From NCBI GenBank assembly GCA_964585935.1, contig CAZPFO010000001.1, forward strand, positions 20,163-84,162: DNA of 64,000 nt. The letters are read 5' to 3'. This DNA is from an uncultured Methanosarcinales archaeon (GTDB lineage: Archaea > Nanobdellota > Nanobdellia > Woesearchaeales > GW2011-AR4). Position numbers and translations under genes: made by a program. Every line of letters starts with the position of its first letter. The first letter of the stretch is position 1. This document shows positions 1,141-24,119 of this stretch, piece by piece. A model generated the notes under the pieces. It was not told the origin of the DNA. It made no database searches and worked only from the letters and a program-made list of their open reading frames with translations.

Positions 1141-1272
1141 TTTTATTTTGTTTTATTGAATAGCGCTATGTGTATCTATTTATCATAAAATGGATATGAA
1201 GTATTAAATACTATGTTAGGATTTTATAGTGGTGTATATCAGATGCCCTTATGCTTTAAATAGAAAGTTAAA

Positions 1273-1287
1273 ATGCCCCTACCGAGA
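1273..1287. repeat. attL-like copy of the tRNA-Arg 3' end
   Basis: atgcccctaccgAga matches 13703-13717 (atgcccctaccgGga) at 14 of 15 positions, with 12 of 12 exact at the start. Confidence 0.65.
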
Positions 1288-1322
1288 ATAGCTATAAACT
1301 TCCACTTTAAGGGAATACTTCA

Positions 1323-1472
1323 TCATGATGATGTTATAAACCTAATAAAAGAAGCATACCCCCACCACCCAATTAAAACTGCTGCAACTAATATAATGAT
1401 AAATATTATTATCCCTCTCCAACTTTCCTTTATGTAATTTACTAAATCCTTCTTCAATTCTTTCCAGTTCAT
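1323..1472 (-). CDS. small single-pass membrane protein (49 aa)
   Basis: Hand-translated as MNWKELKKDLVNYIKESWRGIIIFIIILVAAVLIGWWGYASFIRFITSS. It has an ATG start and one hydrophobic helix, and falls below the ORF-track cutoff. Confidence 0.3.
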   Translation of the reverse strand: MNWKELKKDLVNYIKESWRGIIIFIIILVAAVLIGWWGYASFIRFITSS

Positions 1473-1574
1473 CCAAAACTCCAACCTTCTTTAGGGATAA
1501 AGAGGTTCATTTCTTCTTCTTTGTTTCCTATGAATAAAGATGGATAGCCCCCTTTATATCAATAAAAGAGTTAA

Positions 1575-2339
1575 TTAAACAGAATCCATTAATGTAAATG
1601 TTGAGGAGTGTACTTCTTTATCTCCCTCTTGATTATTTTTACTTTCATAGAAATAATCTTCACAAATCTGATCTTTAAGTAATTGAGCCACAGCTAGAGT
1701 ACAATTTCTCTTTGCAGAACCATATGAGAAGATCATAATAAGTTTCTGTTTATTCCGCATTTTGTGGGTTATGATTTCGACAATAATCTTTTCTGTAATC
1801 TCTTTTTTAACAAAATAAGCGTACTTTTTCCACTCAATTATTATCTCATCAAAGGCATTGAGGATATAATCATTTTCATATTTTTTCTTTTTGAGATCTG
1901 ATAAGTAATCAACAACAGGAGCAATAGCCCCCGTTGTAACTAAATATACTATCTTAATCAAATTAACACCATTCGGTCTTTTGCGTATTGACCCCCTTAT
2001 CTCATCTCCTCTTACCCTATCCACCTCCTTTCCAGATTTATTTAAATGAGCTACAAGATATCCAACCCTGATTAAATCTGAATAATGATGATTTGGTAAA
2101 ATAGAACCAAATTCTAGGTAATATTCTCTTTCAGCAACCTTTTTAAGTATATCATTCTCTTCTTTGTTAGGCACAAATCCAAATTTCTTCTCTGCTGTCT
2201 TATCTTGGATAAGTTTCCTTATAGACTCGTAACCTTTTTTACCTAAATCCAGAATTTTTTTACCAGCAAGTAATTTCAGTGTATCTTTTAAATCCAAACG
2301 AGAAATAGCAGTAATGATAGCTTCAACATCCATTTTCAA
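1575..2339 (-). CDS. hypothetical protein (MGE-borne)
   Basis: 254-aa ORF that overlaps the upstream 83-aa ORF by 17 nt, which suggests an operon. No family recognised. Confidence 0.55.
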   Translation of the reverse strand: MKMDVEAIITAISRLDLKDTLKLLAGKKILDLGKKGYESIRKLIQDKTAEKKFGFVPNKEENDILKKVAEREYYLEFGSILPNHHYSDLIRVGYLVAHLNKSGKEVDRVRGDEIRGSIRKRPNGVNLIKIVYLVTTGAIAPVVDYLSDLKKKKYENDYILNAFDEIIIEWKKYAYFVKKEITEKIIVEIITHKMRNKQKLIMIFSYGSAKRNCTLAVAQLLKDQICEDYFYESKNNQEGDKEVHSSTFTLMDSV

Positions 2340-2574
2340 TCTTTTCCCTTAAATACCTAGAGATGGTAAGGGGATCAGAGTCTATTATTTTCAGTGAACC
2401 AGGCATAAATGCAGCATCTTTTAATGTCAATGGTTGATTTGTCCGATTAGAAATAATATTCTCCTTCAATAAGGTATCATATATTCTCCCTTCTTCGTCA
2501 ACACCATAACCATGAGCGCTTAACAATACTTTCTTCTCATCATCTGTAAGCTCTGCAAACTCAAATTCCTTCAA
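2323..2574 (-). CDS. hypothetical small protein (MGE-borne)
   Basis: 83-aa ORF coupled to 1575-2339 by an overlap. Confidence 0.5.
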   Translation of the reverse strand: MKEFEFAELTDDEKKVLLSAHGYGVDEEGRIYDTLLKENIISNRTNQPLTLKDAAFMPGSLKIIDSDPLTISRYLREKIENGC

Positions 2575-2774
2575 AAACTATCACCTTGTATTTAATTGGT
2601 TATCTTTACCATATATAAACGTTTCTGTTATGTATTATAGCCCATATCTTCCAGGGCATTTTTGTGTTAAAATAGGCTATTTTTCATTATGTTAGCTTAA
2701 TCAATTTTTTTTATCCAAAAGTCTAAAGATGTCATACAAAAAAGGCCTATTCTGTGACATTTTTCAATGTTTGC

Positions 2775-2996
2775 CTATCTGTACACCTTCATCCTGCCCT
2801 GATAAGTTTTTGATTTCCTTCTAAAAAGCACATCCCAATTTGGTGCTACAAGGCTATCTGTGACAACTTTAATATGGTTTAATGTCCAATCTAGGCTAAA
2901 CTTTAGAGCTGTGCTATCATTATCTATGTTTGTTAGAGCCATAAGTTGTTTTAACTTTGCAGCTTCCTCATCATTAAATCTGATTGTTATTCTCAT
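2775..2996 (-). CDS. ribbon-helix-helix (CopG/Arc-like) DNA-binding protein
   Basis: The N-terminus MRITIRFNDEEAAKLKQLMALT has the typical RHH beta-strand plus helix pattern. Confidence 0.5.
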   Translation of the reverse strand: MRITIRFNDEEAAKLKQLMALTNIDNDSTALKFSLDWTLNHIKVVTDSLVAPNWDVLFRRKSKTYQGRMKVYR

Positions 2997-3025
2997 CCTA
3001 AACCTCCATTCTTAGATTGATCCAT

Positions 3026-3301
3026 TTAAATTGAATTGAACATTGAAAATTTACAGATTAAGTAGATCATAACATAAGCATAAACAAATGCAATAAAACC
3101 CCATATAATCCCTAGAATTATACCATAAGCTAATGCAAATGTATATTGATTGTCTGAGACAGCAAACAAAAATTCATGGTTCATCATTATATAAATGAAG
3201 TTTATTAAAAATACACCTAAGCTAAAAAATATCGCAATCTTTAATGACTTCTTTCTATTGCTTCTTTCTAATGGCTCAATAATATAATGTTCTATTTTCA
3301 T
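3026..3301 (-). CDS. small integral membrane protein
   Basis: 91 aa with 2-3 hydrophobic helices (LKIAIFFSLGVFLINFIYIM..., YGIILGIIWGFIAFVYAYVMIYLI). It lies directly downstream of the 789-aa glycoprotein gene. Confidence 0.55.
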   Translation of the reverse strand: MKIEHYIIEPLERSNRKKSLKIAIFFSLGVFLINFIYIMMNHEFLFAVSDNQYTFALAYGIILGIIWGFIAFVYAYVMIYLICKFSMFNSI

Positions 3302-3340
3302 CTTAAATCCCTTATTTTTTATTAAAATAGGCTAATCATT

Positions 3341-5710
3341 TTACCCAAAAGCATTTTTTACTAGCCATATAATACCAAAAATAATTGGAACTACTACAAA
3401 GAATATTATCAATACGATAAAATTCCATAGAATAAAAGGGGATAATTCCATTCCAAATAGATTAACAGGTTCTCCTGAAAATAAAGATGAAAAAATATGA
3501 AGAATAGCACTTGAACCTACCACCAGTTTATAATTTCCCTGGCTGCCACAACCCATGACGGTTATTGCAGCTTCTTGTTGCTCTTCATCTACTTTGCATT
3601 TTATTGTATTCTCAAAAGTTAGATCTGCTTCAATAATAGCACCATCTTCAGCAAAAACACAATTATCCTCTAAATATGAATTGCCATTGATAGAAAACTG
3701 ATAAGTTCCTGAAGTATCACCAGTGTTCTTTATGATGAATGGAACATCTTTGGTAAATTGACCAACAGGCGCAAACATACTGATTAATCTTCCAGCCTTA
3801 GGCAAGAACAATTCCAGGCCACATATAGCAGCATCACCGCCACCTCCGCCGCCACCTCCACTACTGGGAGTTTCAGCTGCAACAACAGTAAAGTTTAACT
3901 CGTTGCCATTGTTAACCTCATTCCCGGAAGTATCTATCGCATAAAACACCAATGAATGTTCTCCCAAGATTGAAGTTGTAAAAGTATCTTTCCATTCTCC
4001 CTTTTGAGGATAACCATTATTTAAAACCATAGTTATATTAGTTTTATCTGTGTTGGGATCTTCAATCTCTACTTTAACGACATTAACACCTATTAAATCG
4101 CTAAAATTAACAAATAAATCAACTGTTTGTCCTAATGTAACCGAAGAAGAGCTTGTTCTATTTCCAAAAATTGAGGGGGCAGTTACATCCACCACTTCTA
4201 TTACTATGCTTGTTTGATTTACGATGTTAAAGCTGTCATTAACCCTAACTGTAAAATTTATGACGGCAGTTATGTTTGAATAGATTGTAAAGTTCTGTGA
4301 GCATTTATCTTTTGTTCCGCTTACAGAAAAATTAAATATTCCTTCTGCATTAGTTTGATTACTCGATATTTGACAAAAACTTAATTCAAAGTTATCTGAT
4401 ACATTTACAGTAACATTAATTGTAGAGTTTGCTTCTATTGAATTTTCTGATATATTGAATGAAAAATTTAAACCAGGATTTGAAGTATCTGTATATGAAA
4501 CATTAAGGAAAGGCCTTAAAGTTGGATCTACTGAATATTCTGTAGAGTGGAATGTATGTTGCTGTGCATTGCTTGCTATTGGAGGTCTTATAGCCATAGA
4601 AACATTATCTAAACCATTAGCATAGGCTTTTTTAACCATATTCCATACAATCCATTCATTCCAACTATCTACTACTGTAAAAATTTCTGATTCTGATGTA
4701 GAATTACATCTATGTGCTAAAGCAGGATCAAATTCTTCTTCATTCCCTGAATCTGCACCACAAGGTTGATTGTTCCAAGTTATTGCTGTTTCCTGCCAAT
4801 CTGCTGTAGGCTCTGATAAATTAACCTCATAAATCTTATCCACCCAAGAACCCTCAACTAATGTGGCATACATATTTACTGTTGCATTTGATATTGTAAG
4901 ATTGTCAGGCACTAATGAAAGATTAAATTTAAGATAGGTTGTTTGTCTAAAAGCCGAGTCTGCATGATTTTCAGTCCATAAATCAACATCAGTTCCATAA
5001 TTGGTATCTGGGTTTGCATGTTCTACATAACTATCTGCTGTTAGATTGCCTGGATGTTGTAGAATAATTGATGGATCGAGGTATAGTTCACCATCAATAA
5101 ATTTATCAGTTAGGTTACCTATGTATATCCTTTTTTCATTCGGCATTATATCAATAGTAAAATTATTTTCTGTTAAATCGTCAAATACCAATGTCGCTAT
5201 ATTTTTTATCTTATATTTTTTATTGTTTTTTGTGAGCTGAGATATATCAAAACCTTCATGCGATTTGTAAGTTAATGTTATGTTGCCTAATTTCTCTTGA
5301 ACAGCAACAGAAACATTACTAACATTTATGGCGTATTTCCAGGAAGTGATTTGTTTTTGTATTGGAAATTTATATATTATTGCTGGTTTTAATGTCTTAA
5401 TCTGAGCCATAGAAAAATAACTGCCGTCATAAATTGCTCCTACTTCAAAGGTTATGCTAAAATTTCCTTTGCTGCCATTATAGTTAAATGTTAGATCATC
5501 TCCACTTTTGGATATGGAAAAAACTTCAGAAGGATCAACCCAATTACTGCTTTTATCCTGGGTGTATCTTGCGCCGGAATAAACCACAGCATTACATATT
5601 CCATTATTGCAGGATTTCTCTGAGCTTTCTGTTCTCTCTACACTCGCAGAAACACAAGTAATTAACAGAATGAACATAAATACAAACATAGCGACAATTC
5701 TATTTTTCAT
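3341..5710 (-). CDS. large secreted, C-terminally membrane-anchored glycoprotein with a DNRLRE/CBM96-like domain (spike- or adhesin-like)
   Basis: It has a signal peptide (MKNRIVAMFVFMFILLITCVSA), more than 30 N-x-S/T sequons and a poly-Gly linker (SSGGGGGGGGD). The C-terminal TM is FILWNFIVLIIFFVVVPIIFGIIWLV. The segment DSYVEHANPDTNYG...TYLKFNLS...ISNATVNMY...WQETAITWNNQP matches the DNRLRE domain pattern. Confidence 0.7.
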   Translation of the reverse strand: MKNRIVAMFVFMFILLITCVSASVERTESSEKSCNNGICNAVVYSGARYTQDKSSNWVDPSEVFSISKSGDDLTFNYNGSKGNFSITFEVGAIYDGSYFSMAQIKTLKPAIIYKFPIQKQITSWKYAINVSNVSVAVQEKLGNITLTYKSHEGFDISQLTKNNKKYKIKNIATLVFDDLTENNFTIDIMPNEKRIYIGNLTDKFIDGELYLDPSIILQHPGNLTADSYVEHANPDTNYGTDVDLWTENHADSAFRQTTYLKFNLSLVPDNLTISNATVNMYATLVEGSWVDKIYEVNLSEPTADWQETAITWNNQPCGADSGNEEEFDPALAHRCNSTSESEIFTVVDSWNEWIVWNMVKKAYANGLDNVSMAIRPPIASNAQQHTFHSTEYSVDPTLRPFLNVSYTDTSNPGLNFSFNISENSIEANSTINVTVNVSDNFELSFCQISSNQTNAEGIFNFSVSGTKDKCSQNFTIYSNITAVINFTVRVNDSFNIVNQTSIVIEVVDVTAPSIFGNRTSSSSVTLGQTVDLFVNFSDLIGVNVVKVEIEDPNTDKTNITMVLNNGYPQKGEWKDTFTTSILGEHSLVFYAIDTSGNEVNNGNELNFTVVAAETPSSGGGGGGGGDAAICGLELFLPKAGRLISMFAPVGQFTKDVPFIIKNTGDTSGTYQFSINGNSYLEDNCVFAEDGAIIEADLTFENTIKCKVDEEQQEAAITVMGCGSQGNYKLVVGSSAILHIFSSLFSGEPVNLFGMELSPFILWNFIVLIIFFVVVPIIFGIIWLVKNAFG

Positions 5711-5730
5711 TTTTATTAACCTATAGAGGG

Positions 5731-5759
5731 GGATGTCTGGAGGAGGTCTCCAGACATCC
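5731..5759 (-). promoter_or_regulatory. perfect 12-bp GC-rich hairpin just upstream of the glycoprotein gene
   Basis: ggatgtctggag-gaggt-ctccagacatcc lies 21 nt from the ATG at 5710. It could be a terminator for the tiny upstream TM ORFs or a 5' UTR element. Confidence 0.4.
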
Positions 5760-6042
5760 TTGAATGACTTCAGATTTTATTAAGTTTTTTTCTTCATGAT
5801 CCAGAGTACAAAAATAATTAATAACATCGAAATAATTAATAACATCAACAGCCCACCTAACACCAAAACTGACAAATTCATAGCGCACCTGACATCTTCA
5901 TCCAAATAAATATTGCCAACAAGACTACAAAAACTGTAAAGGCAAACAGGCCTGTCAAAATTACAGATAGTTTAATTTCCATTGTAAAAGATAATTAAAC
6001 ATAATAACTATTTTAAATATTCAAAATTATACAATTATACAA

Positions 6043-6249
6043 TTATAACATTTTCTTAGTTTTGTCGAGCTGTTTCTTAAACTCCGCAAAATGGGAAGTT
6101 AATATCCTGTCTATAATTTTCTCCTTTGTGTTATCTTCCTCATTAAATAACTTATATGCTTCTATTAAAGTGCTTAATTCTTTGCTTATCCTGATGGTTG
6201 TTTTATTTTCAGGCACAACATCCAAAGCTAATTTTTTCATTTTAATCAA
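6043..6249 (-). CDS. hypothetical small protein (possible RHH or antitoxin-like)
   Basis: 68-aa ORF that overlaps the upstream 93-aa ORF by 8 nt. TTIRISKELSTLIEAYK resembles an RHH strand-helix. Confidence 0.4.
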   Translation of the reverse strand: MIKMKKLALDVVPENKTTIRISKELSTLIEAYKLFNEEDNTKEKIIDRILTSHFAEFKKQLDKTKKML

Positions 6250-6523
6250 TCTTACAATACCTCTTTATAGTTCCTCCTGGCCTTAAATCAAAATTATTAT
6301 AGTCGTGAACTGTTATGTAAAACAATCTTATGAATCTTCCAGTAAATCTGTGGTTGTAAACAGCAAAATAAGTTCCCTTGTCATAAGTTTCATAAATAAA
6401 GTTTGCTAATTGCTTGATTGTGAAGTCTTGTATCTTCTCTATTTCTATCAAATCAATATACTCTGATCTGCCGTTTAATCCTCTCCTGTTGTTCTCTACC
6501 CTTTGATGTAAATAGATATTCAT
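6242..6523 (-). CDS. hypothetical protein
   Basis: 93-aa ORF. No family recognised. Confidence 0.45.
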   Translation of the reverse strand: MNIYLHQRVENNRRGLNGRSEYIDLIEIEKIQDFTIKQLANFIYETYDKGTYFAVYNHRFTGRFIRLFYITVHDYNNFDLRPGGTIKRYCKID

Positions 6524-6618
6524 TTTATTGTTTATTACTAAACTAAATTATAGTTTAGTTAGTTTATAGTCTAACGAGTGGCCTATAACATATACTGTTG
6601 GTACTAAACTAACTATTT

Positions 6619-8091
6619 TTAACATAATTCTATTATCTTAATCCTACCTTGCCTTTTTCTTTTAATTTTGCTATTATTTTCCATATCCTTCAACAACATT
6701 GAGAGATGATCTTTTCTAATCCCTTCTTTTTGTATAATCTCTTTTGCAGTCTTTGAGCCATTTCTAACACTTTCAATTATCCTTTCTTCCCATGTTTTAC
6801 TATGCTCAACTTTTTGTTCTTTTTGTTGTTTTCTTTTTTCCTTTTCTTTCCTTAACTCATTGTATTCCTTGACAGCTTCATCCCACTCTGATCCAATTTC
6901 CTTCTTCTGTTCTTTTATATTTTTCATCTTGCCACCCAACTTTTGCCATGTTTTAATGAAATCAATACCCTCATATCTGTGCATAGTAGGTGGAGGTCTT
7001 ACTATAACTGTACAGGTTTCTTCTGGAGTCAAGCAGATACATTGCCCTGCTTTTAGAAATGGCAGATGTTTCATTATGTTGCTTTCGATCCTTATATCTC
7101 CTTTAAACCTCATAATAATTTCTCCAATCTCTTTTCTGTTGGTTAGCCTAAAAGCAAATAAATTTCCAACTTGGGTTCTTAAAGTATCTGAAACATTTAA
7201 TGGACTTTGTATATCTCCAACAATCTGGAGCTGTATGCTTCTCGCTTTTCTTGCTATCTGGTCAATATAATATTTTGAATAGCTTTTGGATTTGTCAAAA
7301 GGCTGCAATGGTGCTAAATCTCCAATTTCTCGAATCAAAACAACAACTTTTGGTTTTATTTTGTTTTCTGTCTTTAGATCATAAATCCTTCTCAGAAGCC
7401 AAACCACATTGAACATTGTAAGCTCCTCTGTCTTTAAGTAGCCCTGATGGAATACTGTAACTGTTTTTACATCATTAAGTTCTTTTACCAAATCAATACA
7501 ATAAGGATTATTTGCAGAAGTTACACAATTCTCCCTTATCAATGCGTTTAATGGTCGTATAACTCCTGCTAGGCTTCGTGTATCACTGATAGGGATAGGC
7601 ATACCACGTTCATAAATATGCCCTGCTTTAGTGGCCTTCTCTGAAAGTGTAATAAAGTCAGGAACCGTGTCTTTATTATTCATCTTGTTAAGTATTGAAT
7701 TGAAAATGTCCTCCTGGACATTGCTTAAATTCCCTCTGCTCAATATGTTCAACTCTGCTCCCTGTAGCTGATTCAATGGAATGGTATAAAGATGGTAATT
7801 TTCAGGCACTTCATTTGGCAAATTACTGCTCATAGGCAATAATATTTTTGTAGGCAATGCCCTTACTGGCAATTTTCTTTTTTCCAGCCATTTTCTAAAA
7901 CTTCCTTGAGCCTCTAAAGAAAAAAAAGCTCCTTCTATCCTGTTGTCCTGATTATATAGGTCAATTATTTTATAATCATGTTCATAAAAATAATTCCCTA
8001 TACCCTCTAATAAAGTTGATTTGCCAGATCCTGACTGTCCAACTATTAATGTGTGGCTTATTCTATTGGTTTTTAGTTTTATTCCTTCCAT
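6619..8091 (-). CDS. FtsK/HerA-superfamily P-loop ATPase (DUF87-like) with a C-terminal wHTH-like tail
   Basis: Walker A is HTLIVGQSGSGKSTLLEG, followed by KIIDLYN. A candidate Walker B is KPKVVVLIREIGD. The basic, coiled C-terminus ends in a wHTH-like segment (SKTAKEIIQKEGIRKDHLSMLLKDME). Confidence 0.65.
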   Translation of the reverse strand: MEGIKLKTNRISHTLIVGQSGSGKSTLLEGIGNYFYEHDYKIIDLYNQDNRIEGAFFSLEAQGSFRKWLEKRKLPVRALPTKILLPMSSNLPNEVPENYHLYTIPLNQLQGAELNILSRGNLSNVQEDIFNSILNKMNNKDTVPDFITLSEKATKAGHIYERGMPIPISDTRSLAGVIRPLNALIRENCVTSANNPYCIDLVKELNDVKTVTVFHQGYLKTEELTMFNVVWLLRRIYDLKTENKIKPKVVVLIREIGDLAPLQPFDKSKSYSKYYIDQIARKARSIQLQIVGDIQSPLNVSDTLRTQVGNLFAFRLTNRKEIGEIIMRFKGDIRIESNIMKHLPFLKAGQCICLTPEETCTVIVRPPPTMHRYEGIDFIKTWQKLGGKMKNIKEQKKEIGSEWDEAVKEYNELRKEKEKRKQQKEQKVEHSKTWEERIIESVRNGSKTAKEIIQKEGIRKDHLSMLLKDMENNSKIKRKRQGRIKIIELC

Positions 8092-8468
8092 TCTTCTTCC
8101 TCTTGTGTTTGTTGTTGTGGTTGTTGTGAGAGATTAAGTGATTTTAACTGTGTTTTATCTGCAAGAGTATCTGGTTTATAATTCATATCCTCTTCTTCTC
8201 CTAAAATATTTAGTTTCATCAAAATATGAGTAACAAAATTAATTGTCATTCCTATCTCTTCCGCAAGTATGCTACCTGCATCTTCTTGCATTGAACATCT
8301 TTGTAACTCTCTTATTGCAGGCTCGACATTGAAACAAATCCAGGGGTTCATAAACCCGCAAAATCTTTGTTCTTGTTCTATTGCCAATGTCATCTGGCCA
8401 GCAATTACTAAATCACGTATATCCTTAGTTCTCCTATATTGCCTGAATTGATTTTCTAATGGGTGCAT
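8079..8468 (-). CDS. hypothetical protein
   Basis: 129-aa ORF that overlaps the ATPase start by 13 nt. It has an acidic, Q-rich tail. Confidence 0.45.
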   Translation of the reverse strand: MHPLENQFRQYRRTKDIRDLVIAGQMTLAIEQEQRFCGFMNPWICFNVEPAIRELQRCSMQEDAGSILAEEIGMTINFVTHILMKLNILGEEEDMNYKPDTLADKTQLKSLNLSQQPQQQTQEEEEWKE

Positions 8469-8474
8469 TTTTGT

Positions 8475-9083
8475 TCAACCTCCTTGCTTTAATTTCTCTA
8501 CAAATGCATTAATAACTTTATCAGAAGGTACACACTTATATCCTGTCCCTGTCGGTATGGCTTGTTGGTGTTTTAATTGCTTAATCAATGCTTTATATTG
8601 ATCTTCTTCATTAGCTATCTCTTTAAAATTAGTAGCAACTTCTTTAATGAAAGCATACAATACTCCTGTAGGTAGATTGTCCGAACATGACTCTGTCAAT
8701 CTAACCCCTATTCGCCTTAAAACTTCGTTCAATAATTTAATATCATTCTCCCATAACTCTGCTAAAAATAAAGTAAAATCTTCTACTTTAATTCTGCCCA
8801 TGCTTTGCTCTAAAAGAGCTACATCAAAATTTAACCTTATGATACTATCTTGCTTCATTTTGTTTATAGCATAACACAACCTATGACATAAACATTCAAA
8901 GTATCTTTTATCTCCAAAAGTTATTGTATCTAACATATTATCTAAAATTCCCACACATTCGCCGTATGTTCTCGCGTCTTTCCAATATTCTGACACAAAC
9001 TCCATCGTTTTGAGTGGTTTATCTTTTTCTCCTTCCCCTCTTAATTTAGGGTAATAGTTTTTTTCTTCTTCCATTTTTATCAA
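8475..9083 (-). CDS. hypothetical protein
   Basis: 202-aa ORF in the same-strand gene string. No family recognised. Confidence 0.5.
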   Translation of the reverse strand: MIKMEEEKNYYPKLRGEGEKDKPLKTMEFVSEYWKDARTYGECVGILDNMLDTITFGDKRYFECLCHRLCYAINKMKQDSIIRLNFDVALLEQSMGRIKVEDFTLFLAELWENDIKLLNEVLRRIGVRLTESCSDNLPTGVLYAFIKEVATNFKEIANEEDQYKALIKQLKHQQAIPTGTGYKCVPSDKVINAFVEKLKQGG

Positions 9084-9100
9084 TCCTCCTTGTTTTTTTC

Positions 9101-9280
9101 TTAAAATAATGAATTGAAGTCCTCCATTATCTTCGCTTCTGTAACGCTTATCTGTGGATTTTTAGGGTTTTTTTCATTTCTTTGCCGGTGAGCCTTAACT
9201 CGGCATCCTGGGGCAAAATACACAGCTTTTTTGCGTGTTACCCAATTACCGCAGTTGCATGGGCAGAGATGTTTGTTCAT
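9101..9280 (-). CDS. small zinc-finger protein (59 aa)
   Basis: Hand-translated as MNKHLCPCNCGNWVTRKKAVYFAPGCRVKAHRQRNEK... The CxC..C...C.RVKAHRQR pattern is common in phage and plasmid small Zn proteins. Below the ORF-track cutoff. Confidence 0.4.
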   Translation of the reverse strand: MNKHLCPCNCGNWVTRKKAVYFAPGCRVKAHRQRNEKNPKNPQISVTEAKIMEDFNSLF

Positions 9281-9380
9281 TTTTTATTTCAGGTTCTCAA
9301 CAGCCTCCTCCGATTCTATTTCAATCATAGTTTTTCCATGCCCTAATGAATTTAAAAATTCCTTAGCCCTTTTGTCATCT

Positions 9381-11324
9381 TTATTTTTCATTTTGTTTTC
9401 CCTCCTTAGTTTTTTTAATTCGTTTTTGAACCTGCTTAGATTCAAAACAAGTTTTACATAAAGGTCTGCCTTCCTTGCTAAACTGATAGCAAGGGGTAGA
9501 ACCGCAGGAATGACAATTAAAATGGATTACTTCGGAATCTGGAGAATCTTCAATTGTTTCCTCCTGTACCTCCCCAGAAAGTGTCAAGTCAGTCAGTTTG
9601 TCAGAACTTGACTTGACAGTTTGTAAAGTGTCAGAGAAAGTGTCAGTATACCACTTGCCTATTTCCTCGTCTCTATACTGACAATCTGACACTTCTGACA
9701 CTTTTTTAAATAGTTCTTCTTTAGTTAAATACCCATTTCGTACAACTATCTCTGAAATTGTAAAAAAATCAAGCTCAAATCCCCTATTACAACCATCACT
9801 AGACCTAGTTCTAAAATTACCAAATCCTAGAGAAGTCATTAATTTTGTTACTTTATTGGTGCTTATTTTGTATTCTGTTTCTGAAGCTGAGACAAACTCA
9901 GATTTTAATCCCTGAGTTGAAATAAAAAAACTACCTTTATGTTTACAAAATTCTCCTACCAATACTTTTGCGAGAATTGACTCCCAGGTATTCTCATCGG
10001 CAGACTCATCTCTTATTGTAAAAAGTTTTGAGATAAAATTTCCCATTTCATTTTCTAACTTCACATCAATACATCTAGCCATAGCTATTAGTGGTTTGGC
10101 AATCAACCATTGTCTATTAATTAATTTATATTTATTCTCAACTTTAGTAAGGGCTTTTTGATATAACTTATAACTTAACAAGCCATTAACATAAGCAAAG
10201 TCCCTGCATTTTCCAAAATCAGGGTCGTTTTTGTCTGGCTCAATAGAAGCTCTCTTGTCTTTTGGATTAGCTTTAATCATAAACAACGATAAACTTCTTT
10301 TTTCAAGTGCCCCTTTGAGTGGTTTGATAGAACCAATACGAGTAAATCCGAAAGGATCAAACTCTTCGGTTATGTTTATGTTTTTGTCACTTTGCCTTGG
10401 GACATAATTACCTTTTTCATAGCTTCCATTCAAATATTCAACAAGTTCTGAATCTCCTACATTCTTTTTTTTAGAATCATCAAAAAGTTTTTCAGCCTCT
10501 TCGATAGATAGCGCCGATTTATTGTTGTGCCTATATCTAAAATAATTAGCAGGGGTTGGACATAAAAATTTTCTTCCATTAAACGCAAGATTAGAACTAA
10601 TTTTCATACCTTTACTTTTTGCGCTATCAGAAACGCCTTCATGCTTGATTATTACAGACTTATCAATCAGATCATAGAAGTAAGTACATTGATCCCAAAT
10701 AGCATTTAGATCATACCAACCATCTAGCTCAAATACCATCGATTCTGTATATTTTTTTTTAAATTCTTCATGTACTCTTCTGAATGACATAGCAAAATCT
10801 TTATAACCACCTTCAACAAATGTTTTAATTGAAGAAAGAGACCATCTATTTTCTTTAATTTGCATAACTGAATCAAAAACAAAATCACAGCCTCTAGGCC
10901 TTGAATATTTTGATATTATGCGACCATTTTCTAATATGATAGCATTAACTATTTTTTTTTGCCAAACAGAACCTTTTTCTTTTCTCACTTCAACATTCTC
11001 TAAAATATTTGCGCCATAATATCTATATTTTTTTTCATTGATTGTTATTGATCCAACTGCACTATCGATCCTCTCAGGTGTTTCTTCCTCATTTAAAATG
11101 AAACTACCAATCTTCTTTTCTGATTCAATCTCAATCTGTTTATTTTTTCTTATGATACTCTCTGCCAAGACTTCTTCTTGATTCTGTTTGTATTCCTCAA
11201 AATTGCTCCAGCTTTCTCCGGGATCGAGGATATAGCCCTCTCCAACATCTCTAATAATCCCTTTTTCATCTTTAACATAAGGAAGGCCTGAATCTTTGGT
11301 GGTCATTTCTTTTAACTTACCCAT
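9381..11324 (-). CDS. large MGE protein, putative replication/initiator protein with a C-terminal zinc ribbon
   Basis: 647 aa, the largest non-structural ORF of the element. The C-terminus is HFNCHSCGSTPCYQFSKEGRPLCKTCF (a 4-Cys ribbon). No Walker A and no clear primase motifs were found, so the function is inferred from size and position only. Confidence 0.45.
   Translation of the reverse strand: MGKLKEMTTKDSGLPYVKDEKGIIRDVGEGYILDPGESWSNFEEYKQNQEEVLAESIIRKNKQIEIESEKKIGSFILNEEETPERIDSAVGSITINEKKYRYYGANILENVEVRKEKGSVWQKKIVNAIILENGRIISKYSRPRGCDFVFDSVMQIKENRWSLSSIKTFVEGGYKDFAMSFRRVHEEFKKKYTESMVFELDGWYDLNAIWDQCTYFYDLIDKSVIIKHEGVSDSAKSKGMKISSNLAFNGRKFLCPTPANYFRYRHNNKSALSIEEAEKLFDDSKKKNVGDSELVEYLNGSYEKGNYVPRQSDKNINITEEFDPFGFTRIGSIKPLKGALEKRSLSLFMIKANPKDKRASIEPDKNDPDFGKCRDFAYVNGLLSYKLYQKALTKVENKYKLINRQWLIAKPLIAMARCIDVKLENEMGNFISKLFTIRDESADENTWESILAKVLVGEFCKHKGSFFISTQGLKSEFVSASETEYKISTNKVTKLMTSLGFGNFRTRSSDGCNRGFELDFFTISEIVVRNGYLTKEELFKKVSEVSDCQYRDEEIGKWYTDTFSDTLQTVKSSSDKLTDLTLSGEVQEETIEDSPDSEVIHFNCHSCGSTPCYQFSKEGRPLCKTCFESKQVQKRIKKTKEGKQNEK
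9579..9703. repeat. iteron-like cluster of five copies of AAGTGTCA/TGACACTT plus a 10-bp inverted repeat
   Basis: aagtgtca occurs at 9579, 9626 and 9638, and tgacactt at 9687 and 9696. tgtcagtata (9641-9650) pairs with tatactgaca (9675-9684). All lie inside the 3' part of the 647-aa ORF. Confidence 0.6.
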
Positions 11325-11505
11325 TGCTACCAGCCTCCTTCACTTTCAAGACCCTTTGAGCAGGAATAGAAATAATCTTACCACTTTTTAATTTAAATCT
11401 CACAAAAGAATTGACTTCCAAAACCTTAACCCAAACCTCTCGTTTAATATCAGTGTCGTCTAAAAACGCCACAAAATCCTTAAACTCATTTGTCTCAAAA
11501 CTCAT
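11317..11505 (-). CDS. hypothetical small protein
   Basis: 62-aa ORF that overlaps the start of the 647-aa ORF by 8 nt. Confidence 0.45.
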   Translation of the reverse strand: MSFETNEFKDFVAFLDDTDIKREVWVKVLEVNSFVRFKLKSGKIISIPAQRVLKVKEAGSNG

Positions 11506-11742
11506 AGTTAAACACCTCTTCTTAACTTAAAATTTTTTTCAACTTACATTCACAATTTCCTCCCTGTAACTATCAAAAAAATCATGAAAGTCATAGACTT
11601 CAATATTATCAAAATCTTTAATTTTTGTCTGCATTTTGATCCTCAATACCCTCCACAAGAACTTTATGGGCATGATCTAAATTACGAAAACCTTTATCTC
11701 GACAAATCTGTTCGACTTCCTGCAATATTTTATCTGTATTAC

Positions 11743-11886
11743 TCATTTTATCCCCAATTGATTTGAATAAATTTGAATGGATTTTTCTACGAAAGAAGAT
11801 TTGTTTCTTCTGTCAAATTCAGCCCCTTTATTCAATAAATCAAGGCTTTTTTTGTCAAGTGTTATGGAGATAGTTTTTCTTACCAT
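11743..11886 (-). CDS. ribbon-helix-helix (CopG-like) protein (47 aa)
   Basis: Hand-translated as MVRKTISITLDKKSLDLLNKGAEFDRRNKSSFVEKSIQIYSNQLGIK, a classic RHH pattern. Below the ORF-track cutoff. Confidence 0.45.
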   Translation of the reverse strand: MVRKTISITLDKKSLDLLNKGAEFDRRNKSSFVEKSIQIYSNQLGIK

Positions 11887-12012
11887 TTTGAATATCAGGT
11901 TGTATTAGGTTATGTGTAACATTTAAGCATAAGTTATATTTAAATGTTTTGGTAATTTATATACTACAACACATAAATATTTATAAATACTTATATTCTA
12001 ATATATTCTAAT

Positions 12013-12669
12013 ATGAGGTCAAAAATAAGTGAATTAAATACTATTGAAAAAACAGAAATAGAAAATTTGAGGATTACTTCTCAATATCCAATAATAAAGG
12101 AAAATATTATTTTGTTAAAACAAAATTTATTACCATCACAATTATTTTGTTTACAATATACAATTAAATCCCAAAAACCAAATACGACAAGGCAGTATTA
12201 TGTTTCTATTGTCCATGAATTTTTTATTAGGGAGTTTGGACATAACACGAGTGAACTCAATGAAGTAATAGAAAACCTACAGAATAAAATAAAGAAAAAG
12301 TATGGATTTGAAAATATGTCAAGAAAAGATATTATTGCTAATCTTTTAGTTGACAAAAACATTTATCTTCTTTTAAACCAATCTTTGATGGATGTAGAGA
12401 ATAAAATGAAAAAAGAGGTGGGTGTTAAATTAGATTGGTCCATAACAAATAAGACGGCAATAATAGAAATTATATTAAGAAAAATGAAAGTTAAATTTCC
12501 AACATATACAAAGATTAGCAATTCACTTGAAAAATTAAAATCTTTTGGATTTTTATCTAAGATTGTCGAAGACGGAAAAACTTATTGGACACTTAATAAT
12601 AGATTTTTTTTAGAGTTTAAAGATAAATTTAAGGATATTTTAAAATTAGATATTAATTCTTTTTTGTAA
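12013..12669 (+). CDS. hypothetical protein with a C-terminal wHTH-like segment
   Basis: 218 aa, and the only plus-strand gene of the element. KISNSLEKLKSFGFLSKIVEDGKTYWTLN resembles a winged-helix recognition helix plus wing. Confidence 0.5.
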   Translation: MRSKISELNTIEKTEIENLRITSQYPIIKENIILLKQNLLPSQLFCLQYTIKSQKPNTTRQYYVSIVHEFFIREFGHNTSELNEVIENLQNKIKKKYGFENMSRKDIIANLLVDKNIYLLLNQSLMDVENKMKKEVGVKLDWSITNKTAIIEIILRKMKVKFPTYTKISNSLEKLKSFGFLSKIVEDGKTYWTLNNRFFLEFKDKFKDILKLDINSFL

Positions 12670-13642
12670 CCATCGTTGTAAGAACTGCTATTGCTTTTTC
12701 AAGTTTATCCATTCTCTCCTGCTGCTTCTGATTCTCTTCTTTGAGCTTTAATAGTTCCGAGCTGAAAACCTTTTTTGCTCCGATTAAATGAGCAGACTTT
12801 GATCTTCTTACATAAGTTTTTAATTCCTTTGCGCTGTAGCTCCAGCCGTACCTATTTGCCAGGGCAATGAGGTCTCCATGTAGGAGTTGAGCATAGAGCG
12901 TTGCTGAACTATGCCTTAAGCATTGAATATTAAGTTTAATGCTTATTGCTTTACTGCTTGCATTTCCTAACATCTTTAGGTAAGATCCATAATTAACATT
13001 AAACAACTTATTGTCATTATTTAGGCTTTTATAATACACTCCGTTAACAAACGCTTTAATATCCTCTGTAAATAATTGTATTGGAATGGTTCTTGGCTCT
13101 GTCTTTGATTCATTGCATTTAATCCAAAAACACTTATTTCCATCTTCATCAAAAACATCCCAGGTTAAATCCTTTTTTAATGCAGAGAACATTTCAGATT
13201 TTCTAAAGCCAGAATCAAAAAACATCAAAGTTAGTATTCTATACTCGAGCTTGTCAAACTGAGCTGCAACTTTCATTATATCATCTTGAGAAGTTGTTGG
13301 CTTTTCTTTTGGCTTTTCATCCTTGCCTATTGTCGCCTTGATCCATGAAACTTCTTTTGGATAGTTTTCATCTTCTCCCCTTGTATGCTTAAAATACTGC
13401 TTTAGGAATTTCTTTATATCCGCCTTAGTTGATCCTGAGAAGTTACTGCCATCATTCTTTTTTATGATGTTTCTGTTAAGGTTATTCAAGAAGTTTTCAA
13501 TCTGCTCTCTCTTCGCTGTTTCTAGGTTAATGTACTTGCTTGTTAAAGTAAACATTACTTTAAGCTTTTTTATCCTTTGCTGCGTAAGCTGCTGGTTCAA
13601 TAGGTGGTTTTCATATTCCTTCCAGGAAGCAACCTGTTTCAT
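12653..13642 (-). CDS. int: tyrosine recombinase / phage-type integrase
   Basis: 329 aa. The C-terminal catalytic region is ...CLRHSSATLYAQLLHGDLIALANRYGWSYSAKELKTYVRRS (R-H..R/H...Y pattern). The N-terminal SAM-like domain lies next to the tRNA att site. Confidence 0.8.
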   Translation of the reverse strand: MKQVASWKEYENHLLNQQLTQQRIKKLKVMFTLTSKYINLETAKREQIENFLNNLNRNIIKKNDGSNFSGSTKADIKKFLKQYFKHTRGEDENYPKEVSWIKATIGKDEKPKEKPTTSQDDIMKVAAQFDKLEYRILTLMFFDSGFRKSEMFSALKKDLTWDVFDEDGNKCFWIKCNESKTEPRTIPIQLFTEDIKAFVNGVYYKSLNNDNKLFNVNYGSYLKMLGNASSKAISIKLNIQCLRHSSATLYAQLLHGDLIALANRYGWSYSAKELKTYVRRSKSAHLIGAKKVFSSELLKLKEENQKQQERMDKLEKAIAVLTTMVTKKN

Positions 13643-13702
13643 AATACCTAGAAAATACTAACTCCTATATAAATTATTCCCCCAATATGGAAGTTTATAA
13701 GT

Positions 13703-13717
13703 ATGCCCCTACCGGGA
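13703..13717. repeat. attR-like core, which is the 3' exon end of tRNA-Arg
   Basis: atgcccctaccgGga is the direct repeat of 1273-1287. Confidence 0.65.
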
Positions 13718-13847
13718 GTTTCGCGCATAAGTTTCGAGTGTGCCATAAATTTGCTATGCAAATTTAATTTCACCAAAATTTAATGCCAATCGAACCCGGG
13801 TCACAAAGTCCGCAACCTTGTATTCTTATCCATTAAACTATAGGGGC
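13704..13847 (-). tRNA. tRNA-Arg(GCG) with a ~69-nt intron in the T-loop
   Basis: The minus strand reads GCCCCTA-TA-GTTTAATGGATAAGAAT-A-CAAGG-TTGCGGA-CTTTG-TGAC-CCGGG-TTCGA[~69 nt]CT-CCCGG-TAGGGGC-A. The acceptor (GCCCCTA/TAGGGGC), anticodon (CAAGG/CTTTG) and T (CCGGG/CCCGG) stems all pair. The D arm is irregular. Confidence 0.7.
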
Positions 13848-13984: not shown

Positions 13985-15058
13985 ATGGTTAAGATGAATG
14001 AACCAAAACGCTCACCAGGAATAGACCATAATATTTTAGTAGTTAGTAGAGATACTAATACAATAGACAGTATAACCTCTATTTTAGGAGACCGGATTCC
14101 GATTGACAAAAGATATAATATTAAACCAACCACTGATTTTGAAGAAGCTGTTGGGGAATTAAAGAAAAGTTTTTATGAAATTGCTATCGTATCTTCTATC
14201 GAAGAAAGCGATAAGAGTGTTGATTTAATAAAGCATATCAATGATTCTACAGATTTAGAAACGTTAGTTATTGCATTAACACCCAGAGTTTTAAATGAAA
14301 ATCTAAATAACAGGGCTCTTGACGCTGGTGCTACCCTTCTTGAACCAGTTCCAATTTGCCCTGCGAATCTACGTAATACTGTGGAAAGGACACTTGAGAT
14401 ATTGGGAGGTTACACTGATCCATTAACCAAACTATATAAGAAAGAGATATTTCATGAAAGGCTTGGAAAGGAACTAAAAGACCTTTATGGTAGGAGGGAA
14501 GAAGATCACGAGATTGGGAAGGAAAAAAGACACGGAATTAAACAAGCTAGTTTTTTAAAAAGAGCTTATCGAAAAATAGTTACCGAAAATGCTGATCAAC
14601 GTATTGGTGATAACTGCTATTCTTTGTTGTTTATGGACCTTGATAGATTTAAGGGGATCAACGACAAATATGGGCATGGTGTTGGTGATAAGGTATTAAA
14701 AGAAGTTGCAAGTGCAATTACAAGTATAACGCGTTCATCCGATATACAATCAAGGTGGGGCGGGGATGAATTTGGGATTGGTATCAGAGGGTGTAGTTAT
14801 GAAAATGCATTAAATGTTGCTCAAAAAATACTAGAAGCAGTAAATAATATTGAGATTTATGCAGATAGTGAAAGAATTCAAATTGCGACTTCGATTGGGG
14901 TCGTCACCGCTACTACTGGGGAAAAATTCATAGTGGAAGAATTTTTTAAAGCCGCAGATGAAACACTTTACCATGCTAAAGGATTCGGGAGATGTAATGT
15001 AAAAGGCTATCCTGATTATCTGGCTGCTAATAAAGCTAAATTAGCTAATACTAAATAA
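13985..15058 (+). CDS. diguanylate cyclase: degenerate receiver-like domain plus GGDEF domain
   Basis: 357 aa. The GGDEF domain reads LLFMDLDRFKGINDKYGHGVGDKVL...RWGGDEFGIGI. An RxxD I-site (RSSD) sits five residues upstream of GGDEF. The N-terminal CheY-like fold (ILVVSRD..., VIALTPR) lacks the phospho-acceptor Asp. Confidence 0.85.
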   Translation: MVKMNEPKRSPGIDHNILVVSRDTNTIDSITSILGDRIPIDKRYNIKPTTDFEEAVGELKKSFYEIAIVSSIEESDKSVDLIKHINDSTDLETLVIALTPRVLNENLNNRALDAGATLLEPVPICPANLRNTVERTLEILGGYTDPLTKLYKKEIFHERLGKELKDLYGRREEDHEIGKEKRHGIKQASFLKRAYRKIVTENADQRIGDNCYSLLFMDLDRFKGINDKYGHGVGDKVLKEVASAITSITRSSDIQSRWGGDEFGIGIRGCSYENALNVAQKILEAVNNIEIYADSERIQIATSIGVVTATTGEKFIVEEFFKAADETLYHAKGFGRCNVKGYPDYLAANKAKLANTK

Positions 15059-15523
15059 AAAACCCTTAACTTCTTCACTTTTATAATCCGGAAACGTATG
15101 CCAGAATTCTACAACTTTATCGTCTTTAAACTCCAGAACCTTATGCGCCCAGACTTTTTCTGAGAGCTGTTCTTTATAATTTGTTCCTTTTTTGAAGGAA
15201 GCCAGAACTACCTCTTTCTTTGTTAGGTAACCTGGATCTAGATTTATTTTTCTTTTGTTGTTTTCTGAATAGTTTTTTTCAAGATTGGTTGTGAATATTT
15301 TTATACCTGTTAGTTCCCCTTTTTTTATCTCTTTTTTAAAAACAATTATTTTTTTTATTAGGTTTTTGCCCATTTCTTTTTCATAATAAGAAGTAAAGCT
15401 GTCAAAATCATATTCATTGCTTTGTTTTTCAATCTCTCCAAATTCTTTTATTAAGTCTTTAAGGGCTTTTTCGTAAATATCCCTATTGGAGAACATTATT
15501 GCGAGTAAGAGTTTGGTTGGCAT
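15041..15523 (-). CDS. DUF4416 family protein
   Basis: 160 aa. DFDSFTSYYEKEMG...INLDPGYLTKKEVVLAS...FWHTFPDYKSEE matches the DUF4416 signature (F..T.YYe.EMG, NlDPGYl, TYPDY). Confidence 0.75.
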   Translation of the reverse strand: MPTKLLLAIMFSNRDIYEKALKDLIKEFGEIEKQSNEYDFDSFTSYYEKEMGKNLIKKIIVFKKEIKKGELTGIKIFTTNLEKNYSENNKRKINLDPGYLTKKEVVLASFKKGTNYKEQLSEKVWAHKVLEFKDDKVVEFWHTFPDYKSEEVKGFLFSIS

Positions 15524-15609
15524 TTTTTGATAGGATTTTGGTTTAATAGGCTGTAAGAGGAATAATATTTAATAATGTTTCCCATGGGAGTTGATATTCA
15601 GAAAACGGT

Positions 15610-16887: not shown

Positions 16888-17042
16888 TTTCCATATTTGA
16901 ATTGTATCTTCTTTATAAACTTTTCTTTTGTAATCTTTCTAAAGTAGTTACTAATATATAGTATCCAGGATATACTTCAAATATTAGTAAAACCGTAAAG
17001 AAACTTGCAATGCTTTATAAAAATTAAAAATTTTCATTGAAG

Positions 17043-20141: not shown

Positions 20142-20245
20142 TTTAAAAGGGAGATTTCCGGGGTTTATTAAATTTTTTAAAGATATGATGAAATAATAAC
20201 AAAAATCCAATAAATATATAAATAACTTTAATAAAAAATATATCC

Positions 20246-23816: not shown

Positions 23817-23961
23817 TATGATACCCCTCCATTTTTTTGAGCATAATTTTAAAGTGTTGTTATTCTAAAATACTAACTGGTATTTAAACTTTTCGAATAG
23901 TAAAAATAAGTAAAAGTTAAATCAAGGAGAGCACTGAATCTCAAGACAGGATAGTGAAAGA

Positions 23962-24075: not shown

Positions 24076-24119
24076 AGTGATATTAAATTGGCAACGCCAA
24101 TTTATGGCGTTTACCAAAA

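Follow-up and report, generated by a model that had tools for sequence, protein, structure and literature searches.

A probable plasmid-like element integrated at an intron-containing tRNA-Arg(GCG) gene of an archaeon

An integrated element at the 3' end of tRNA-Arg(GCG)

In the 64-kb stretch of archaeal contig CAZPFO010000001.1 analysed here (the window), the evidence supports a real integrated element that is sharply delimited at positions 1273 and 13714. We judge it reasonably probable that positions 1285–13714 (12,430 bp) are a site-specifically integrated, plasmid-like (“cryptic integrated”) mobile element of an archaeon, with its own integrase and replication protein (Rep). A preliminary description of the window had placed an integrative element in the 3' end of a tRNA gene. 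This is upheld by the direct repeat together with a terminal inverted repeat, by the ends of separate contigs, by the attachment site of a relative and by parallel insertions in other relatives. The features that define the insertion are:

1273–1287, distal attachment (att) copy: core at 1273–1284, then AGA (element side, one mismatch to the tRNA)
1288–1323, left terminal inverted-repeat arm, perfect core TATAAACTTCCA at 1293–1304
13669–13704, right terminal inverted-repeat arm, perfect 12-nt core TGGAAGTTTATA at 13688–13699; presumed integrase-binding arm of the element's own site, attP
13703–13717, tRNA-proximal att copy: core ATGCCCCTACCG at 13703–13714; GGA at 13715–13717 completes the tRNA 3' exon
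13704–13847, minus strand, tRNA-Arg(GCG) gene: 5' exon 13789–13847, intron about 13718–13788, 3' exon 13704–13717

The window has two copies of the 12-mer ATGCCCCTACCG and no more, at 1273–1284 and 13703–13714, both on the plus strand. The chance expectation for this 12-mer is 0.08 even with one mismatch and both strands allowed (dinucleotide-preserving shuffles), and two or more matches appeared in none of 100 shuffles. The longer 15-mer ATGCCCCTACCGRGA also has two true copies only, which agree at 14 of 15 positions, the three bases after the 12-mer being AGA at one end and GGA at the other. The integrase gene is thereby bracketed by a direct repeat of which one copy is a tRNA 3' end, the arrangement of a tRNA-integrated mobile genetic element (MGE).

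Read on the minus strand, the tRNA-Arg(GCG) gene consists of the acceptor strand GCCCCUA, the D-arm, a GCG anticodon stem-loop, the T-stem strand CCGGG, UUCGAU, an unrelated stretch of 71 nt and finally U-CCCGG-UAGGGGC-A. The 71-nt insert is located in the T-loop (13718–13788, boundaries ±1), and because it interrupts this loop the gene is missed by standard tools. Default ARAGORN called no tRNA in the window, and Rfam at the gathering score missed tRNA-Arg(GCG) and reported a tRNA at 23962–24075 as the only one in the window; a permissive Rfam scan gave a 16-bit partial match at 13784–13847, corresponding to the 5' two-thirds of the tRNA. On folding, the acceptor and T stems pair around the insert, and its removal in silico leaves a 73-nt tRNA-Arg(GCG) that ARAGORN does call. 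Such in-silico splicing confirms the tRNA-Arg(GCG) that had been described beside the integrase, though default tools do not see it.

A suboptimal fold of the insert, 0.9 kcal/mol above the minimum free energy, comprises the T-stem, a 3-nt bulge (ACU), a 4-bp helix (UUCG:CGAA), a 4-nt bulge (AUUG) and a further helix. This corresponds to the bulge-helix-bulge (BHB) motif of archaeal introns in a relaxed form with a 4-nt bulge, and symmetric cleavage of the predicted motif would give a 7-nt T-loop. As modelled, the insert can form a relaxed BHB intron. The idea that it is debris from an earlier integration was rejected in view of the BHB-like fold and of the canonical tRNA restored by its removal.

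On the tRNA strand the repeat reads CGGTAGGGGCAT and is composed of the last three nucleotides of the T-stem, the 7-nt acceptor strand, the discriminator A and one nucleotide beyond. The tRNA part of the 12-nt repeat thus amounts to 11 nt, and the next three bases (GGA versus AGA) finish the 14-nt 3' exon. Judged from the sequence, the att core corresponds almost exactly to the 3' exon of an intron-split tRNA-Arg(GCG); the fit of attP to the spliced tRNA and to the tRNA gene differs by a single base. Of the preliminary description, which saw in the repeat the terminal 12 nt of the tRNA, the two direct copies stand, and the count is corrected to 11 of 12, with one nucleotide outside the gene. 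The target is likewise a tRNA-Arg 3' end as proposed, located in a gene that appears to be intron-split and not in an uninterrupted one.

Boundaries of the element

The longest inverted repeat in 1200–13800 (36 nt, 78%) has its arms directly inside both repeat copies, and the two copies of its perfect 12-nt core TGGAAGTTTATA are the only ones in the 64 kb. When the element ends are joined, the reconstructed attP shows these inverted arms around the core, which is the usual layout of tyrosine-recombinase sites. The composition of the element also departs from that of its flanks. The GC content is 32.3% inside and 35.4% outside, and comparison of tetranucleotide usage between 1.3–13.7 kb and the rest, a check put forward in the preliminary description, gave a distance to the host profile of 0.0184 inside versus 0.0136 ± 0.0019 outside.

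Contigs from other assemblies end at both boundaries. Logan contig L001 (SRR6439359) is identical to window positions 12202–13702, and Logan contig L003 (SRR6439360) corresponds to 173–1284 with three single-nucleotide polymorphisms, on account of which it represents a second strain. The contig ends at 1284/1285 and 13702/13703 are the points where occupied and empty alleles would diverge, and they differ from the positions expected of a circle (1272/1273 and 13714/13715). These breaks in two samples suggest a presence/absence polymorphism in the population. That the integrated state is no artefact of assembly follows from an NCBI metagenome contig (L002) that spans the left junction. The junctions of the occupied state fall in segments 1245–1324 and 13663–13742; the predicted empty site would read ...GAAAGTTAAA-ATGCCCCTACCG-GGAGTTTCGCGC... 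and the predicted circle ...GTTTATAAGT-ATGCCCCTACCG-AGAATAGCTATA....

Related elements

Genome and metagenome scans with the Rep alignment identified 24 loci, including two Woesearchaeota metagenome-assembled genomes. Since relatives of the integrase and of Rep occur in DPANN archaea, the host is probably a DPANN or Woesearchaeota-like archaeon.

The joined ends of the element are found in loci L034 and L035, whose integrase is 62% identical to that of the window. Both carry TTCT-CGGTAGGGGCAT-AC about 60 nt upstream of the integrase gene (int), matching the predicted junction at 18 of 18 positions. The attP of L034 joins the left-end core flank (AGAA, 1285–1288) to the right-end flank (GT, 13701–13702) of the window element. 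There is further similarity to both element ends in L034 and L035 with no tRNA body upstream, and a stretch homologous to the left arm (1288–1323) adjoins the core in L034.

Parallel insertions were identified in other relatives. In L028 a Rep homologue and an integrase are located beside tRNA-Arg(GCG), and a 14-nt repeat (TCACGCCCCTTCCG) of the same tRNA positions brackets a 7-kb element. In L014 int and rep are found at tRNA-His, where a 16-nt repeat of the tRNA 3' end brackets a 12-kb element and attP has a 16/18 inverted repeat. An integrase homologue with 55% identity (L031) is adjacent to an intron-containing tRNA-Glu and has quite different cargo. Two other relatives, L011 (5,991 nt) and L015 (5,553 nt), are closed circles as judged by terminal overlaps of 123 and 55 nt, respectively. 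They contain a 768–772-aa Rep fused to an archaeo-eukaryotic primase (AEP) domain, an integrase, a helix-turn-helix (HTH) protein and a few small open reading frames (ORFs); upstream of int, a GC-rich core resembling a tRNA 3' end is flanked by perfect inverted repeats (AACAAAAC/GTTTTGTT). We regard L011 and L015 as candidate minimal integrative plasmids of DPANN archaea.

From this comparison, the family backbone is int, an opposite-strand HTH gene, a ribbon-helix-helix (RHH) gene and rep, the rest being exchangeable. An ATPase of the window element, described below, is shared among the related loci with L021 and L008 only, and the closest Rep relative, P0110, has no ATPase/glycoprotein module.

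We considered the alternative that the repeat is a coincidence and that the region is ordinary chromosome or an island gained by another route. In an AT-rich stretch of this length, direct repeats of 12–15 nt often arise by chance, and the att core is short. Against this, the repeated 12-mer is a GC-rich tRNA end with an expectation of at most 0.08, the region's longest inverted repeat flanks the core, the same architecture occurs in three relatives, the joined ends are present in L034, and the element differs in composition from its flanks. A coincidence is therefore extremely improbable.

Two further observations concern the relatives themselves. At 3888–6548 of L034, an unrelated 886-aa Rep (Pfam MTBMA_p00010_2nd) occupies the same backbone position, which shows a swap of replication modules between elements sharing an integration module. 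At 14330–17230, L014 has genes for a serine resolvase/invertase and for another, small tyrosine recombinase (229 aa), and extra small tyrosine recombinases are present in L028 and on the P0110 contig as well.

Integrase

The integration side of the element contains two genes:

12653–13642, minus strand, tyrosine integrase, 329 aa, with R147, K180, R243, W267 and Y277, and Q240 in place of the catalytic His
12013–12669, plus strand, 218-aa protein with a winged-HTH-like C-terminus, putative regulator; its position matches that of the HTH protein next to the L034 integrase

The assignment of a tyrosine integrase to 12653–13642 in the preliminary description proved correct. Of 108 homologues, about 100 contain PF00589, and some are named Nanoarchaeota or Woesearchaeota integrases or recombinases. 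The family profile matches Pyrococcus abyssi XerA (PDB 4a8e, E = 3e-7) across box I, HxLRH and the Tyr, and the NCBIfam model XerA_Arch matches the window integrase with 26.6 bits (E = 4e-6); queried alone, the window protein returned nothing in Pfam, PHROGs or a phmmer search of the PDB. Both the family profile and the homologues place it in the tyrosine recombinase/phage-integrase superfamily, and R147, K180, R243, W267 and Y277 are invariant in the family. The integrase start is 60 nt from the repeat core, and the ORF is intact after integration. This differs from the SSV-type (type I) arrangement in that int is unsplit and the att core is located 60 nt upstream of its start. By this gene layout the window integrase is of the pNOB8-like “intact integrase” type.

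Replication protein

The genes of the rep side are:

9381–11324, minus strand, Rep, 647 aa, AAA+ replicative helicase (MCM/Cch/D5-SF3-like fold) as predicted, with a C-terminal CxxC..CxxC motif
11317–11505, minus strand, 62-aa ORF overlapping the rep start
11743–11886, minus strand, RHH (CopG-like) protein, 47 aa, first gene of the rep-side operon; sub-threshold RHH_1 match

Rep has no Pfam match, and its sequence profile gave no significant match against the PDB. Its 62 homologues share 36–57% identity, almost none of them with a Pfam domain. The AlphaFold2 model (mean predicted local distance difference test score, pLDDT, 79.6) is composed of an N-terminal beta domain, an AAA+ core and a winged helix. 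Foldseek matched it with probability 1.0 to MCM4, PriRep1 (PDB 7pds, among the top fold matches), SCCmec Cch and the primase-helicases of African swine fever virus and monkeypox virus, with further matches to adeno-associated virus Rep68 and the origin recognition complex. In the viral library BFVD the model matched primase-helicases, DUF927 and D5-like proteins (down to E = 1e-21, TM-score 0.51). Residues G229, K235 and S236 are invariant. The model and the P-loop place Rep among the AAA+ helicase folds (MCM or superfamily 3, i.e., D5 and DUF927), and the “rep-like” designation given to the 647-aa protein is confirmed at the level of fold. As modelled, Rep represents an undescribed family of MCM/D5-like replicative helicases, an assignment that holds at the level of fold and does not extend to any one named family.

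Some Rep homologues contain an N-terminal AEP primase (PF01896, PF08800; motifs VVIDLD and GSKGYHIHLFF), and AEP motifs are present in the Reps of L011, L014 and L015 and in P0120 and P0170. Neither the window Rep nor, in six-frame translation, any other part of the element contains these motifs (hhhDhD, sGxGYHIH). To judge by their length, about half of the Rep homologues have no primase domain either, so that a Rep without it represents a normal variant.

ATPase and surface-protein module and remaining ORFs

The remaining predicted genes of the element are:

1323–1484, minus strand, single-span membrane protein, 53 aa, left end
1575–2574, minus strand, overlapping ORFs of 83 and 254 aa
2775–2996, minus strand, RHH-like protein, 73 aa (DUF6290 match, E = 0.06)
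3026–3301, minus strand, 91-aa protein with two to three predicted membrane spans
3341–5710, minus strand, surface protein, 789 aa: signal peptide, DNRLRE/CBM96 domain, Gly-rich linker, C-terminal transmembrane anchor
6043–6249, minus strand, RHH-like ORF, 68 aa, recognised by eye, no significant match
6242–6523, minus strand, 93-aa ORF; in the related locus L021 its homologue comes after that of the ATPase
6619–8091, minus strand, HerA-clade FtsK/HerA ATPase, 490 aa: Walker A at residues 18–26, C-terminal winged HTH (DUF7343)
8079–8468, minus strand, 129-aa ORF, no detectable homologue
8475–9083, minus strand, 202-aa ORF, no detectable homologue
9101–9280, minus strand, Cys-rich (zinc-ribbon-like) protein, 59 aa, from sequence only

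As the preliminary description had stated, the ORF map shows the ORFs between the repeats to be almost all on one strand, the minus strand, in operon fashion with overlaps of a few bases; they are intact and tightly packed. The HerA/FtsK ATPase named there is also borne out. It matches FtsK_SpoIIIE, DUF87 and AAA_10 in Pfam. A profile of its family, built from 265 representative homologues about 500 aa long, detects HerA structures in the PDB (E = 3e-22 to 1e-10) and, with lower significance, the STIV2 B204 packaging NTPase (2e-6), the TrwB/TraD coupling proteins (about 1e-5) and FtsK (5e-4). Over its ATPase core, the protein belongs to the HerA clade of the FtsK-HerA superfamily; because Walker A is located at residues 18–26, it has no N-terminal HAS-barrel region.

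The protein that had been called a spike-like glycoprotein has a signal peptide, a C-terminal anchor, a DNRLRE/CBM96 domain and 31 N-x-S/T sequons versus about 13 expected, in keeping with a surface glycoprotein; nothing ties it to a virion, and the earlier name is supported in part. Of the three RHH proteins described earlier (47, 68 and 73 aa), all remain candidates, with sub-threshold matches or sequence pattern as their support. PADLOC and NCBIfam searches of the ORFans returned nothing beyond HerA and DNRLRE, and the AlphaFold2 single-sequence model of the 254-aa ORF was unusable (pLDDT 34.8).

The gene for the 789-aa protein contains a 23-nt inverted repeat (22/23) whose arms, at 4255–4277 and 5413–5435, are separated by 1.1 kb; a repeat of this kind appeared in 0 of 200 Markov shuffles. 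The segment 4255–5435 may be an intragenic on/off inverton, inversion of which would truncate the surface protein at 99 aa. Separately, a perfect 18-nt tandem duplication (AAATAATTAATAACATCG twice, 5812–5846) is located in a small ORF (5721–5888) and gives the peptide VINYFDVINYF.

Plasmid-like element, provirus or remnant

Several observations weigh against the reading of 1285–13714 as a mobile plasmid-like element. The empty site and the circle of the window element were not recovered in searches of contigs and exact-protein look-ups. Neither the GGDEF neighbour nor Rep is on record in the exact-protein look-ups, and the contigs that carry the DUF4416 neighbour end inside the GGDEF gene, short of the tRNA. 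The GGDEF neighbour has no close homologue, which leaves no close host relative for a synteny view of the empty site. The contig end at 13702 fits only if branch contigs were trimmed by k−1, which makes the contig-end argument indirect. In the integrase, Q240 (codon 12923–12925) replaces the catalytic His of HxxR found in 22 of 22 aligned homologues, and next to it the TP/SP of the homologues is changed to NI. In light of Q240, the integrase copy may be attenuated or dead. Finally, no homologue was detected for about 10 ORFs, among which a gene for a capsid or another virion protein could hide, and the combination of a HerA/FtsK ATPase, an anchored glycoprotein and small membrane proteins would also suit a membrane-containing virus.

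The first of these observations bear on the possibility that the element integrated as described and is now a decayed remnant, fixed as a genomic island with an inactive integrase. The Gln substitution and the missing circular and empty-site sequences favour this, as would the loss from Rep of a primase domain that several relatives possess. On the other side, all ORFs are intact and tightly packed, the att cores are still identical with their terminal arms intact, and the contigs of two samples break exactly at the allele-divergence points. The primase domain is also missing from about half of the Rep homologues, and changes of the His at the HxxR position are tolerated in some tyrosine recombinases. 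On balance we consider a dead remnant improbable.

The ORFans and the surface-protein module bear on a second possibility, a provirus of an undescribed membrane-containing (pleomorphic or spindle-type) DPANN virus that would integrate and replicate as proposed for the plasmid-like element. The 789-aa protein would then be the spike, the 91-aa and 53-aa proteins would be virion membrane proteins, and the HerA/FtsK ATPase would package or extrude the genome. Integrase-bearing pleolipoviruses (e.g., SNJ2, which integrates in tRNA-Met by a tyrosine integrase) have genomes of 7–17 kb with a comparable gene set: a tyrosine integrase, an anchored glycosylated spike, small membrane proteins and an NTPase. 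The window element shares with them the size range, the tyrosine integrase, the tRNA target, an anchored sequon-rich protein with adjoining small multi-span proteins, and an NTPase. Its ATPase family profile also reaches the STIV2 packaging NTPase, in L008 an ATPase is likewise accompanied by a small multi-span protein and a secreted, sequon-rich one, and the many ORFans could hide structural proteins.

However, the element has no detectable protein similarity to pleolipoviruses, its gene order differs, and the module is not conserved among its relatives. Homologues of the VP3/VP4/VP8 cluster of pleolipoviruses were found neither by tblastn in 50,697 phage and archaeal-virus records nor among PHROG structural families, and no element protein matched a PHROG structural family. 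In the same records, tblastn with the ATPase and the glycoprotein gave one weak pectin-lyase-like match (E = 8e-4). In 2.9 million IMG/VR contigs, scanned with Rep and ATPase as single proteins, Rep and integrase as profiles and the exact attP 18-mer, we found no relatives of Rep, integrase or ATPase and no match to the 18-mer. The ATPase is far closer to cellular and defence HerA than to packaging ATPases. The closest Rep relatives lack the module, which argues for an accessory block rather than a conserved morphogenetic core, and the smallest free relatives carry little beyond Rep and int. A provirus is possible, though doubtful; in its favour, half of the ORFs are opaque and the trio of ATPase, glycoprotein and membrane proteins is suggestive.

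We favour an integrative plasmid-like element over a classical provirus because no viral signal was found and the free relatives, in their minimal form, consist of hardly more than Rep and int. Profile and family searches identified no capsid or conjugation genes in the element. It also differs from an archaeal conjugative element of the pNOB8 type (an integrative and conjugative element): where such elements combine VirB4/TrbE-like and VirD4/TraG-like ATPases with several membrane proteins, there is a single ATPase here, and the matches to VirB4 and TrbE are confined to the P-loop (E about 0.007). A broader and rather unlikely version would make the element a provirus or vesicle-transmitted plasmid belonging to undescribed membrane-enveloped agents of Woesearchaeota-type DPANN archaea, in which the ATPase would load the genome, the glycoprotein, perhaps switched by the inverton, would attach, and the Rep family would mark a widespread unrecognised mobilome.

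Proposed mechanism

For the plasmid-like element, we propose that the integrase recombines attP with the 3' exon of the intron-containing tRNA-Arg(GCG), attP being composed of ATGCCCCTACCG and its inverted arms about 60 nt upstream of int. The integrase would bind the inverted arms, and strand exchange would take place within the 12-bp identity. Because the crossover would fall inside this identity, the tRNA gene would stay intact, with a displaced pseudo-3'-end at 1273–1287. The tRNA-side junction keeps CCCGG, so the tRNA-Arg gene would stay functional; at the distal junction the variant CUCGG of the element is found.

Excision would yield a 12,430-bp circle, replicated with the help of the 647-aa MCM/D5-like helicase. 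Since Rep has no primase domain, priming and polymerase would come from the host. The small RHH protein heading the rep operon probably controls the Rep helicase. The second half of the element would be an exchangeable accessory module with a HerA-type DNA-translocating ATPase, an anchored, presumably glycosylated surface protein and small membrane proteins, which could serve in cell-to-cell DNA transfer, in vesicle or virion formation, or as cargo for host interaction.

Comparison with known systems and significance

The pRN-type integrative plasmids of Sulfolobales (the pRN1 family, pSSVi and pXZ1) combine CopG, a primase-helicase Rep and an integrase. The window element is like them in that an RHH gene heads the rep operon, recalling CopG-Rep control in pRN plasmids, and in its large Rep of primase-helicase type, its integrase and its tRNA target; the small free circular relatives of 5.5–6 kb, with little beyond Rep and int, are a further likeness. 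In contrast to pRN-type plasmids, the window Rep has no primase domain and is similar at fold level only (TM-score about 0.3), int is not split by integration as in the SSV type, and there is an extra ATPase/glycoprotein module. With SCCmec Cch and archaeal MCM helicases (PDB 5dgk, 8b9d and 8q67) Rep shares the succession of N-terminal beta domain, AAA+ core and winged helix, but identity is about 10%, Pfam MCM and Cch do not match, and the C-terminal zinc-ribbon-like motif is additional.

A close architectural parallel is offered by the cryptic integrated elements of Thaumarchaeota (Krupovic et al. 2019, PMC6563490). Their tyrosine integrases insert in 3'-distal parts of tRNA genes, intron-containing ones included, and the elements encode MGE-type replication proteins (MCM, Cch-like, primpol-S3H) and mostly ORFans, with no recognisable virion or conjugation genes. 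For mesophilic archaeal integrated elements, short att sites (a median of 17 bp, going down to 8) and intron-bearing tRNA targets are documented (PMC6563490). The likeness is drawn from architecture. As differences, the window element has another host lineage and a Rep family outside Pfam, and its att core coincides with a 14-nt 3' exon made by a T-loop intron. The kind of element is already known, the new details being the lineage, the Rep family and the att-equals-3'-exon configuration. No new principle is involved, as other archaea have long provided familiar examples of integrative plasmids and cryptic elements that target tRNA genes.

Mobile elements have been assigned to DPANN archaea from metagenomes in the catalogue of Wu, Liu & Ni 2024 (Nat Microbiol), to which PMC12647753 (see also PMC13573593) credits 97 DPANN viruses and MGEs. 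The preliminary description held that very few viruses or plasmids of these archaea had been described, a view that is dated given this figure from one study as relayed by the citing papers. There are also further surveys of proviruses (PMC12647753, PMC13573593), and DPANN viruses and MGEs are likewise reported in bioRxiv 10.1101/2025.02.15.638363. DPANN mobile elements are still sparsely documented, and their hosts are uncultured.

At this locus the limits of the element are precise and attL, attR and attP are all defined; it also brings to light an integrase family and a Rep family, the latter going unrecognised in standard databases. This Rep family occurs both as integrated copies of 7–12 kb and as closed circles of 5.5–6 kb. 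The integrase and Rep families could serve as markers for mining DPANN mobilomes, and the integrase with its attP, as well as the small replicons, might provide parts for future genetic tools. Because tRNA genes with non-canonical introns are invisible to default finders, detection of tRNA-anchored islands will miss such insertions.

Neighbouring genes

Beyond the tRNA gene, at 13985–16887, genes for a GGDEF diguanylate cyclase, a DUF4416 protein and an HD-GYP-type (HD_5) protein are clustered. Cyclic di-GMP signalling genes are unusual in archaea. No close homologue of the GGDEF protein was found among 5.8 billion proteins. An archaeal helicase with an intein and a LAGLIDADG domain (17043–20210) adjoins the cluster, and the independent contigs L004–L006 confirm that it is contiguous with the cluster. 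In three independent assemblies (one from NCBI and two from Logan) the sequence stops at 14566 or 14616, within the GGDEF gene (window 14557–14616), where a 14-nt tandem repeat (14557–14589) adjoins the breaks.

A second intron-containing tRNA gene, tRNA-Ile(GAT) with a 41-nt intron, is located at 23960–24076 on the minus strand; default ARAGORN misses it, and Rfam and the ARAGORN intron search find it. ARAGORN -i also proposes a doubtful “tRNA-His(ATG)” at 24119–24236.

At 39982–43250, the window encodes a fused dehydroquinase-shikimate dehydrogenase and a fused EPSP (5-enolpyruvylshikimate-3-phosphate) synthase-shikimate kinase. Together with 3-dehydroquinate synthase and chorismate synthase, the fusions complete a shikimate-pathway block, a biosynthetic capacity beyond what would be expected of a reduced DPANN genome.

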